Assembly (NCBI GenBank): GCA_045863855.1 | Contig: BTVV01000151.1 | Location: 1-13,503 of the forward strand | Source: Planctomycetota bacterium | GTDB lineage: Bacteria; Planctomycetota; SZUA-567; H5-PLA8 | Reading direction: 5' to 3' | Length of the DNA: 13,503 nucleotides | Shown here: piece by piece, positions 11,181 to 13,249 of the stretch | Numbering within the stretch: the first letter of the stretch is position 1 | Layout of the letters: the number at the start of each line of letters is the position of its first letter | Position numbers and translations under genes: made by a program | Notes under the pieces: generated by a model | Database searches by the model: none | Seen by the model: only the letters and a program-made list of their open reading frames with translations | What the model was told of the DNA's origin: nothing

Positions 11181-11232
11181 CTCAGCACCCGGCGAACCTG
11201 CGGCTGGTCTGGAGCAAAAGCCCGTTGAGGCG

Positions 11233-11238
11233 TATAAT
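11233..11238 (+). promoter_or_regulatory. Consensus -10 box upstream of the methyltransferase
   Basis: TATAAT 28 nt before ATG 11267; GGAGG SD at 11254-11258; no good -35 box. Confidence 0.5.
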
Positions 11239-11266
11239 CCGGACGATCGAATCGGAGGACAAGGCC

Positions 11267-11857
11267 ATGAAGGGACGCGAAAGCGGCATGCCAGACGAGG
11301 AGTATTGGACCTCGTTCTTTAATCCGGATTGAGTCGTCGCCAAGCTCGACTGCACGGGTCCGTGCGGGGATGTGCTGGAGTTCGGTTGCGGCTACGGAAC
11401 CTTCACGCTGCCTGCCGCGCGGCGCGTTCAAGGCCGCGTGTACGCCTTGGATATCGAGCCCGAAATGACCGCCGCCACCGCGGCCAAAGCGCGCGAAGCG
11501 GGACTCGCCAACGTCGTAACCGACGTGCGCGATTTCCTGGCCCAAGGTTCGGGACGTCCCGATCGCAGCATCGATTACGCGATGCTTTTCAACATCCTCC
11601 ATATCGAGCGACCCGCGACGCTCCTGAACGAAGCCTACCGTGCGCTTAAACCAGGCGGCAAGCTGGGCATCATCCATTGGCGGCGCGACCGGCCCACGCC
11701 GCGCGGACCATCATTGGAGATTCGCCCCACGCTCGAGCAATGCCGCGCTTGGGCCGAGGCGGCCGGATTCGAGTTCGTGCGCAGCGAAGAGCTCTGCTGC
11801 TGCAGTTGGCATTGGGGCTTGGTGATGCGCCGGCCCTTAAGCGCGTCGGCGAAGTGA
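11267..11857 (+). CDS. Class I SAM-dependent methyltransferase with an in-frame TGA at codon 22 (candidate selenoprotein; alternatively a nonsense allele)
   Basis: The ORF-track pieces ending at 11332 and starting at 11372 are in the same frame: MKGRESGMPDEEYWTSFFNPD*VVAKLDCTGPCGDVLEFGCGYG... (196 codons). The SAM motif I (VLEFGCGYG), VYALDI and LKPGG are present. A start at 11372 would begin inside motif I. Confidence 0.85.
11350..11367 (+). promoter_or_regulatory. Candidate bacterial SECIS element
   Basis: CUGCACG-GGUC-CGUGCGG forms a 7-bp stem with a G-first loop that starts after a 24-nt spacer from the UGA. Confidence 0.55.
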
Positions 11858-11901: not shown

Positions 11902-11970
11902 CCGCCTCCGTCTTCCTCCGGAAGACTCCGGCGCGGCGGCCTTCGCCCTCGCTGCGCTACGGGCGAAGGC
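11902..11970. repeat. Two adjacent GC-rich inverted repeats (REP-like or terminator-like) directly 3' of the CCA end
   Basis: GCCTTCGCCC (11939-11948) / GGGCGAAGGC (11961-11970) and GTCTTCC (11910-11916) / GGAAGAC (11920-11926). Confidence 0.7.
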
Positions 11971-13249
11971 TGGTGGAGGCGATGGGAGTTGAACCCGTAA
12001 AGCCTTGCGTGCAAACCGTTTCCACGTCTAGACTTTCCGCGCCAACGGCGAGGCGTTGTGCTGGACTTATGTTGCCAGCGCCCAAGTTTAGGGCGTTTGC
12101 CACCGATTCAGCCACCGCAGCAAGCCGATCCTGGGACGCACGGCCGTAAGTATCCAACGTCAACGATGCCGCCGAATGCCGCGCCAACGTCTGCGCCTCT
12201 TTCACGCTCGCCCCTGATTCAAGTATGAACGTGACGTAGGCCACCCGGCAGGCGTGGAAATCCGCCTTCCCGCCCGGTCCGTACTTCGTCATACCGGCCG
12301 CAATCAGGTCTTTCTCCAAATCACGGGCCGCGTTCCTGGGGACATAGAGCAACGGCCGCTCCGGTGGCGGACCCTTGCGCTTCCGGGCATTCCGCAGATC
12401 CGCGTATTGGGTCGCGGCCAAGCCTTGCTTGGCCGATTCGGCCAGCCGCTCAACCAAGGCGCGCGGTAGCACCTGGAACCCGCGTTTGCGGTTCTTGGTC
12501 CAGGTCGGATCGAGTAGCAACCCGCCGCGTTTCGTGTCCAAGTGATCCACGGTCAACGCGCGAAGCTCGCCAACGCGAAGGCCGGACAGGAAAGCGACCT
12601 CGTAAAGCATCCGCCGATGCGGCGCCGCTGCCTCAAGTAACCGCCTGATTTCATCGGCCGTCAGTGCACGGCGAGTGGTAACGGGCGTCGTGTCGAACGC
12701 GGTGAGGCGAGCAAGCGGATTGCTGTCGAGGTATCCCCGTTCAACGCACCATGCCGCGAAGGACGCCAGCGCCTCAGCCATGTTCTGCTTGGTCTTGCCC
12801 GTGGCCGGACGCAACGGTTGGTCTTTGCCCTTGGGCTTGGCCAGCAACTCCCGCAAGTGCTTCTCAACGCGAGGCAAACAGCCGATCAGGTCGTGATGCG
12901 TGGCGAACCCAAGCGCCCGCTTCCAAGTCCGCAACCAAGCCTCTTTGTTCCGCGCGTGCACCCGTCCCCATGGGAATCCCCCACGGCCACCTTGGGCACG
13001 TCCCCAAGCCATATATTCAGCCACAACCAAATCGAACTCACGCGGCGCGTCACTAACCTTGGGAGCCGGACGAAGGCCCTTTCGAATCTCATCCTGCTTG
13101 ATCTGCTCACGAAGCGCTTCCCGCTCCGTGTCCGCGCGTGAAGTGCTTCCGGTTGCCGTGCACCGCTTGCCCTGCCAATCGGTGTACTGGTATTTCCAAC
13201 GCGGATGCGGATTGCCATCCTTCCGCTTTGACTGAAACACGTAAGGCAT
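11957..13249 (-). CDS. Tyrosine recombinase / integrase
   Basis: Catalytic residues: SGLR (R), TKNRK (K), FHACR (HxxR), LARHS (H) and LDTY (Y). The N-terminus resembles an arm-binding domain, and SNPL marks the end of the core-binding region. Confidence 0.95.
   Translation of the reverse strand: MPYVFQSKRKDGNPHPRWKYQYTDWQGKRCTATGSTSRADTEREALREQIKQDEIRKGLRPAPKVSDAPREFDLVVAEYMAWGRAQGGRGGFPWGRVHARNKEAWLRTWKRALGFATHHDLIGCLPRVEKHLRELLAKPKGKDQPLRPATGKTKQNMAEALASFAAWCVERGYLDSNPLARLTAFDTTPVTTRRALTADEIRRLLEAAAPHRRMLYEVAFLSGLRVGELRALTVDHLDTKRGGLLLDPTWTKNRKRGFQVLPRALVERLAESAKQGLAATQYADLRNARKRKGPPPERPLLYVPRNAARDLEKDLIAAGMTKYGPGGKADFHACRVAYVTFILESGASVKEAQTLARHSAASLTLDTYGRASQDRLAAVAESVANALNLGAGNISPAQRLAVGAESLDVETVCTQGFTGSTPIASTSLRP
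11971..11996 (-). other. att site: displaced 3' fragment of tmRNA (ssrA), less likely tRNA-Ala
   Basis: Minus strand GGGTTCAACTCCCATCGCCTCCACCA comprises a T-loop, the 3' acceptor strand with the Ala-type U70, and ACCA. The T-stem has a mismatch upstream of GGG and no 5' half is present. Confidence 0.85.

Follow-up and report, generated by a model that had tools for sequence, protein, structure and literature searches.

Bacteria insert selenocysteine (Sec) at in-frame UGA codons by means of SelA, SelB, SelC and SelD, together with a SECIS hairpin located within the reading frame (PMC13188914). A 2026 inventory of 119 selenoprotein families (Table 1 of PMC13188914) includes six methyltransferase entries, namely ArsM, two ArsM fusions, MduS, a UXPK-star fusion and the methylated-DNA-protein-cysteine methyltransferase. 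In ArsM, as far as the accessible text of the deep-Sep report describes it (PMC12013277), Sec lies in a C-terminal T/G-U-V-x-G-A motif; ArsM and a DNA-repair enzyme are the only methyltransferases seen in that text. Other small class I SAM enzymes, MddH and MddM1/MddM2, methylate H2S or methanethiol (PMC11445057, PMC12904073). In the accessible parts of these two papers they are related to TMT1A/B, membership requires methylation of H2S or methanethiol and, at 70% coverage, >=40% identity to a ratified member, and no Planctomycetota members are mentioned; the accessible MddH text makes no mention of selenium.

Here we analysed a 13,503-nt stretch of Planctomycetota DNA (the window), in which a plus-strand frame opens at ATG 11267 and runs to a terminal TGA at 11855-11857, with the TGA at 11330-11332 (codon 22) as its sole internal stop. 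Read through at this UGA, the gene (11267..11857, +) would encode a 196-aa class I SAM-dependent methyltransferase, to which homologs align over residues 1-190 and which matches Pfam PF13649 (E 2.6e-17, from residue 36). The first-pass annotation had described a frame broken by this TGA alone and followed by a methyltransferase domain, and both parts of that description held. From sequence comparison we put at about 0.92 the probability that the UGA at codon 22 is selenocysteine and that the family is a new selenoprotein family.

The upstream signals of the same annotation were also confirmed in the sequence. A Shine-Dalgarno-like GGAGG (11254..11258, +) is located 8 nt 5' of the ATG, and a TATAAT (11233..11238, +) is a weak candidate for a -10 element. 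A sigma-70 scan gave no plus-strand -35/-10 pair, hence no -35 to go with this TATAAT, and the hexamer is altered in a related contig; a promoter upstream of the gene is only weakly indicated. The N-terminal motif K2-R4-S6-G7-M8-P9, found family-wide, backs ATG 11267 as the start. Calling with table 11 gave only a 161-aa ORF starting at GTG 11372, and this is the form (P0002) in which the protein collection holds the product, so that standard gene callers do truncate the gene as had been anticipated. No Rfam match was obtained anywhere in the window at gathering thresholds.

The presence of Cys or TGA at position 22 in homologs was a check set in advance. Of 5187 proteins, the best 120 have Cys (116) or Ser (1) at column 22, except for 3 in which the N-terminus is missing, and TGA was found at this column in 26 genes besides the window gene. 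Eleven of these belong to the best 80 of 289 confirmed genome loci, where the remaining loci carry Cys (26) or other residues (43, with identity of <=61%). Thirteen came from metagenomes, with a pattern in which only the codons flanking the UGA and a downstream E-F-G-C-G were fixed and the stem was left free; all 13 stretches were true homologs, each with the TGA and the hairpin described below. The last two were found among 40 relatives, which brings the TGA genes to 27 with the window gene. The carriers are mostly 63-71% identical to the window protein, or about 0.7 changes per site on the tree. In 260 near-full-length family rows, of which only the DNA-derived ones are able to show a stop, 21 of 21 internal stops are at column 22, and in none of the rows does a UGA occur at the Cys-Cys pair discussed further on. 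The in-frame TGA at 11330..11332 (+) is accordingly annotated as a predicted selenocysteine 22.

The family is patchy, with matches in 15 of the 401 genomes of a phylum sample. Among the matches listed, the closest named record is a Planctomycetota genome, with 92% identity and the same gene order. Host assignments are soft, because some record labels (e.g. Bacteroidales for L042) may be binning errors. The window genome also contains a Cys-form paralog (contig C201, 1570-2139), 69% identical and devoid of the hairpin; it has an AAA ATPase and an MgsA-like gene as neighbours, and beside it lies an ORF which we take to be terminase-like. The relative behind locus L008 carries two Cys-form copies (L023 and L032). 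We ran a quick tree search on 66 rows, comprising every genome locus with TGA or Cys, 18 of the 43 with neither, 9 of the 13 from metagenomes, the window gene and the C201 paralog. The U and C rows intermingle in this tree, with 8 changes, and a single origin of U22 may be compatible with it.

The putative bacterial SECIS, CUGCACG-GGUC-CGUGCGG, is located at 11350..11367 (+), exactly as first described: a 7-bp stem closes a GGUC loop (11357-11360) that begins 24 nt after the UGA. The SECIS of E. coli fdhF also has GGUC at its apex, about 6 nt nearer the UGA. Loop sequence, stem length and spacing of the window hairpin (GGUC, 7 bp, 24 nt) fall within the published bacterial SECIS consensus as given in the accessible text (PMC13188914). 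The local fold of the hairpin has an energy of -11.1 kcal/mol. When the 71 nt from the UGA were folded, the minimum-energy solution preferred another structure (z = -1.23) and the hairpin was not recovered; support for the hairpin therefore comes from its conservation and local fold, not from global stability.

Conservation and covariation were assessed in all 27 TGA genes (25 distinct over 60 nt). All keep the hairpin, with 173 of 175 cells paired, a pairing score reached by 0 of 500 shuffles; slid registers pair in 15-63%. Two compensatory changes were observed; since the carriers are related, all of these counts overstate independent events. The loop-closing G-C became A-U in two genes, at the cost of a Pro to Leu substitution, and an A-U became G-C in two other genes, where Thr gives way to Ala and Cys to Arg or Leu. 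One TGA gene (L105) has an AGUU loop and one mismatch. Covariation specific to TGA carriers had been another check set in advance, and it was found: no Cys gene has both the seven pairs and GGUC. All 23 of 23 distinct TGA genes use GGT for the Gly codon in the loop, and at the following Gly codon each of the four endings occurs (6/6/6/5); for comparison, seven window genes have GGT at 8% of their 229 Gly codons, and the Cys genes at 4 of 26. These comparisons indicate that the hairpin is under selection as RNA. Base pairs of the SECIS are kept at amino-acid cost, and RNA structure here clearly takes precedence over protein sequence.

Five Cys-form genes keep 6-7 of the 7 SECIS pairs with another loop (L023:3061, L022:3064, L009:3064, L019:791 and L018:3064). 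They may be relics of lost Sec, or a by-product of the same amino acids. A C29-x-x-x-C33 redox motif was also considered and rejected, C33 being encoded within the SECIS stem and replaced by Arg or Leu in two TGA genes. Genome-wide, on both strands and in all frames, 18 of 141,824 TGA triplets are followed at 16-37 nt by a GGUC-loop stem of at least 7 bp, a figure that carries no p-value because the filter was chosen after the window hairpin had been seen. A looser SECIS-consensus scan of the genome returned 428 sites, mostly spurious, and was too noisy to define a selenoproteome.

The presence of the Sec machinery was a further check laid down beforehand, and selA, selB, selC and selD were all found in the window genome (93.9% complete). 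selA, a TGA-containing selD and the tRNA-Sec gene (selC) are together on contig C231 and selB is on C192; selD has one TGA, with a different G-loop hairpin ~33 nt after it. The search for selA and selB was extended to the genomes of 35 of the 37 TGA or Cys loci, those left out being two Cys copies from the same genome as L008. Both genes were detected in 11 of 11 TGA genomes; in the Cys genomes (n=23), selA was above cut-off in 15 and a selB match was obtained in 15. Of the two further TGA relatives, G041 has both selA and selB, and in G050 (79% complete, 1320 contigs) the selA match was limited to an N-terminal fragment at the edge of a contig, with no selB at E <= 1e-60. In all, selA and selB are present in 12 of the 13 other TGA genomes, and the 13th is incomplete.

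Two other genes of the window genome, which like the window gene are among the 18 TGA triplets with such a stem, are probable selenoproteins as judged from their sequences. One (C19:11568, +; L112:258-1010) encodes a membrane-anchored peroxiredoxin-like protein containing W-U-P-S-C, has its GGUC hairpin at the 24-nt spacing of the window gene, and lies below the NCBIfam cut-off for SelL-related proteins. The other (C3:15006, +; L113:266-610) encodes a secreted MerP/CopZ-like heavy-metal-binding protein with M-T-U-G-G-C and a GGUC hairpin at 20 nt, and lies below the NCBIfam cut-offs. A GGUC hairpin after the UGA is thus common to the window gene and these two UxxC genes. Elsewhere in the genome, contig C1 carries a tRNA array of at least 23 genes (~23600-27700).

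Taken together, an intact gene, a complete Sec machinery, the pairing of Cys with TGA at column 22 and a hairpin under selection make Sec incorporation at codon 22 very highly probable, as the first-pass annotation had proposed. SelB with Sec-tRNA(Sec) would bind the GGUC hairpin inside the coding sequence and deliver Sec at the UGA. It is very improbable that this codon is instead read as cysteine or tryptophan, or by leaky read-through, or that it acts as a selenium-dependent expression switch. Such decoding could draw on the fact that Cys is the residue in most close homologs, and on a second tca-anticodon gene called by ARAGORN on contig C125. However, this call was rejected as a false positive (78% G+C, mismatches in two stems, absent from the Rfam tRNA-Sec matches), the hairpin fits the bacterial SECIS model and recurs in the two UxxC genes, and TGA is an ordinary stop elsewhere, including at the end of this very gene, which agrees with the original remark that the genome is not recoded as a whole. 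Even more improbable is a nonsense mutation, a pseudogene, an assembly error or a true start at GTG 11372. The intact C201 paralog could relax selection on the window copy, and databases do call the 161-aa product, but the first 21 codons before the UGA include eight residues conserved family-wide, the same TGA is present in 26 other genes, the majority of them 63-71% identical, and no other internal stop occurs in the 260 rows. In addition, the same TGA was recovered in assembled contigs (not raw reads) of three public runs, one of which is possibly the source of the window DNA; small-share runs were left out of this comparison. A related contig has 21 listed differences from the window in 11205-11320 and zero over the UGA and hairpin. 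These contigs and the 26 genes argue that the TGA is genuine. One 151-nt contig came from an RNA run and was not taken as a sign that the window gene is expressed.

An AlphaFold2 model with Cys at position 22 (mean pLDDT 94.5) places this residue in helix 20-26, before motif I, and displays the class I features: a seven-strand Rossmann-like fold, a GxGxG motif I and acidic residues after strands 2 and 3, with G40, G42, G44, D62 and D89 conserved across the family. Motif I, which binds SAM in class I methyltransferases, is E-F-G-C-G-Y-G (residues 38-44; 11378..11398, +), of which G40, G42, Y43 and G44 are conserved in >=90% of the family. Family-wide conservation further includes K2-R4-S6-G7-M8-P9, W14, F18, N109-H112, H137-W138, T144-P148, R153-P154 and H182, and no Cys. 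The stretches from N109-H112 to R153-P154 listed here, together with H182, likely form the catalytic pocket. An ESM Atlas query with a Cys homolog (P0101) returned generic methyltransferase clusters only.

Only ~14% of the weighted family carries C/U22, and the basic reaction therefore does not require Sec. Since the pocket is common to members without such Cys, and most of the wider family lacks both C/U22 and the Cys-Cys pair, Sec looks like an accessory of one subfamily and not like the core catalyst. Its putative partner site is Cys177-Cys178-Cys179 (11795..11803, +), in the loop between the last two strands, as suggested by co-occurrence with C/U22. At least two Cys are present at this site in 35 of 35 C/U22 loci versus 8 of 42 others, and C179 and C178 are the top weighted correlates of C/U22, although kin are not independent. 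Sorted by state, the 80 loci comprise 35 with no Cys, 8 with Cys-Cys only, 26 with C22 and 11 with U22. In the class I topology, the start of the helix points to the substrate side, as does the loop joining the last two strands, which makes a shared Sec22/Cys178/Cys179 site plausible.

The window gene stands alone, divergent from a neighbour that we take to be NAD-dependent epimerase-like, behind which come presumably ribH-like and nusB-like genes. At other loci the gene is immediately preceded by one for an OsmC-like protein in which two Cys are invariant, and the stop codon of this gene often overlaps the methyltransferase start. This arrangement was found at 8 of the 11 genome loci with TGA, 3 of the 26 with Cys and none of the 43 others, and at 9 of 13 metagenome TGA loci; it was not seen at L103, L105 or the window, and the window genome has only a 28% match. 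Complex prediction with an OsmC dimer and the Cys-form methyltransferase of L009 scored 0.18 (mark 0.32), which counts neither for nor against such a complex. Within 3 kb of the 80 loci, some stretches being shorter, we counted DsrE (20), ArsR (19), rhodanese (12) and persulfide-dioxygenase-like genes (5), as well as chromate transporter (5), AhpD (4), ArsM-like (1) and ArsE-like (1) genes. Rhodanese is also present at 12 of the 19 ArsR loci. DsrE lies beside members without C/U22 at 19 of its 20 loci, and sulfur-related neighbours are mostly so placed. The neighbours favour sulfur or chalcogen stress over arsenic, mostly for the members without C/U22. A gene (L086:958-2283) for an SBP56 selenium-binding protein, which we take to belong to the methanethiol oxidase family, is located upstream of a no-Cys member and fits a sulfur or selenium link.

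On the other side of the window gene, a tyrosine integrase gene (PF00589; 11957-13249, -) overlaps a copy of the 3' end of tRNA-Ala(CGC) at ~11964-11999. The syntenic relative L008 has an intact tRNA at the matching place, where its similarity to the window stops, and an integrated element therefore starts immediately beyond the methyltransferase gene. Its other end may be marked by an intact tRNA-Ala(CGC) on contig C140.

Tentatively, we propose a role in detoxification, with a small sulfur or chalcogen nucleophile (sulfide, persulfide-derived thiol or selenide) as the methyl acceptor. The product would be a stand-alone member of the uncharacterised 3dh0/3i9f type of class I SAM methyltransferases. 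In it Sec22, at the start of the first long helix, would adjoin Cys178/Cys179 at the active-site rim. Sec22 and the two Cys would form a reversible Se-S or substrate-trapping site, and the two-Cys OsmC-like protein, encoded upstream in most TGA loci, might recycle it. The fuller scheme, in which Sec22 and the vicinal Cys-Cys make a three-chalcogen site that captures and methylates sulfide, persulfide or selenide with the translationally coupled OsmC-like partner, is quite unlikely as a whole. If true, it would amount to an undescribed route to volatile methylated sulfur or selenium, and the living intermediates (no Cys, Cys-Cys, Cys22, Sec22) would show the stepwise rise of a selenoprotein.

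Other roles can be envisaged for the same three residues. It is somewhat unlikely that Sec22 is a redox switch or a stabilising Se-S bond in an enzyme acting on an unrelated small organic molecule, the neighbours then reflecting co-regulation under oxidative or sulfur stress. The conserved pocket without Cys and the stepwise addition of Cys seen in the 80 loci would suit this possibility, as would the structural neighbours, which are small-molecule O-, N- and S-methyltransferases, and the OsmC and AhpD genes, which encode thiol-redox proteins. Yet the cost of SECIS upkeep, amino-acid changes included, suggests more than a structural role, and no neighbour gene points to a substrate. An ArsM-like function, in which Sec22, Cys178 and Cys179 would be the three ligands of a soft metal or metalloid (As(III), Hg(II), Te) that is methylated or sensed for regulation, we regard as unlikely. 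A cluster of three thiol or selenol groups is well suited to binding As(III) or Hg(II), the ArsM type accounts for several of the known methyltransferase selenoproteins, and the ArsR, chromate transporter, ArsM-like and ArsE-like neighbours are joined by cation or RND efflux genes. Against this, the window protein (P0001) scored 30.7 bits versus an ArsM cut-off of 263, over the generic core 35-135 only; its alignment to the natural ArsM-like neighbour was limited to residues 36-132; the C-terminal Sec motif of ArsM is absent; none of the three residues is found in most of the family; and rhodanese accompanies most of the ArsR genes. Our tentative preference remains with methylation of a small sulfur or chalcogen nucleophile.

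For the window protein no model of NCBIfam release 20 passed its cut-off, the best E-value among 125 aligned members being 2.8e-14, and none of the 119 families of the 2026 inventory matched (Table 1 of PMC13188914). The suspicion that this is not a classic selenoprotein family thus held against both collections, which argues for a new family using a known recoding mechanism. No such family was found in the accessible material of BSepDB (PMC13326102) and SelCysML (PMC13745706). A literature search, within the texts it could access, found nothing on this methyltransferase family, of which supplements or RefSeq annotations could hold a prior listing, and no paper on planctomycete selenoproteomes. 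The family would be mainly planctomycete and apparently uncatalogued, new as a family and in its Sec position, which the catalogues consulted do not list for methyltransferases. It is invisible to protein-level surveys because public protein sets hold the TGA forms truncated. The coexistence of no-Cys, Cys-Cys, Cys22 and Sec22 forms, with Sec and Cys copies in one genome, would allow a direct test of the benefit of Sec on a non-oxidoreductase fold, and the family is also suited to asking how Sec is gained or lost.

Compared with the methyltransferases known to contain Sec, the window protein shares with ArsM (NF008823) and its fusions (NF041536, NF041537, NF047649) a class I SAM methyltransferase core and the replacement of Cys by Sec. 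It differs in scoring only 28-39 bits, over the generic core, against cut-offs of 263-575, and in length (196 aa versus 270-460 aa). The Sec of ArsM lies late in the chain within a UxxG motif, according to the accessible description, whereas that of the window protein comes ahead of motif I, as residue 22 of the 196, within F-F-N-P-x-U. MduS (NF045649) likewise combines a Methyltransf_25 domain with Sec, but the score was 25.7 bits versus a cut-off of 380, and its 338-position model has two Sec in CxxU, in contrast to one Sec and no CxxU here. Against the UXPK-star fusion, a family defined by its C-terminal UXPK-star extension, the window protein reached 37.8 of the 460 bits required, over residues 31-134 only.

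The best fold match is Aquifex aeolicus 3dh0 (TM 0.80; Z 23.9, rmsd 2.1 A over 182 residues), and Sulfolobus solfataricus 3i9f is related by profile. These structural-genomics SAM methyltransferases share W-x(5-6)-G-P and P-Y-H-F-G-type motifs with the window protein. They differ from it by their ~25% identity, by Lys at column 22 in 3dh0 and by the lack of the Cys-Cys pair in 3i9f; their entry titles name no substrate, and no functional study was found in the literature accessible to the search. For the proposed function, MddH and MddM1/MddM2, in the accessible text, serve as a model by analogy only (PMC11445057, PMC12904073). In bacterial Sec insertion, as described in the accessible text (PMC13188914), we find the same UGA, G-first 4-nt loop, 7-bp stem, 24-nt spacing, machinery and Cys homologs. 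The mechanism would thus be alike throughout, and only the protein family is new.
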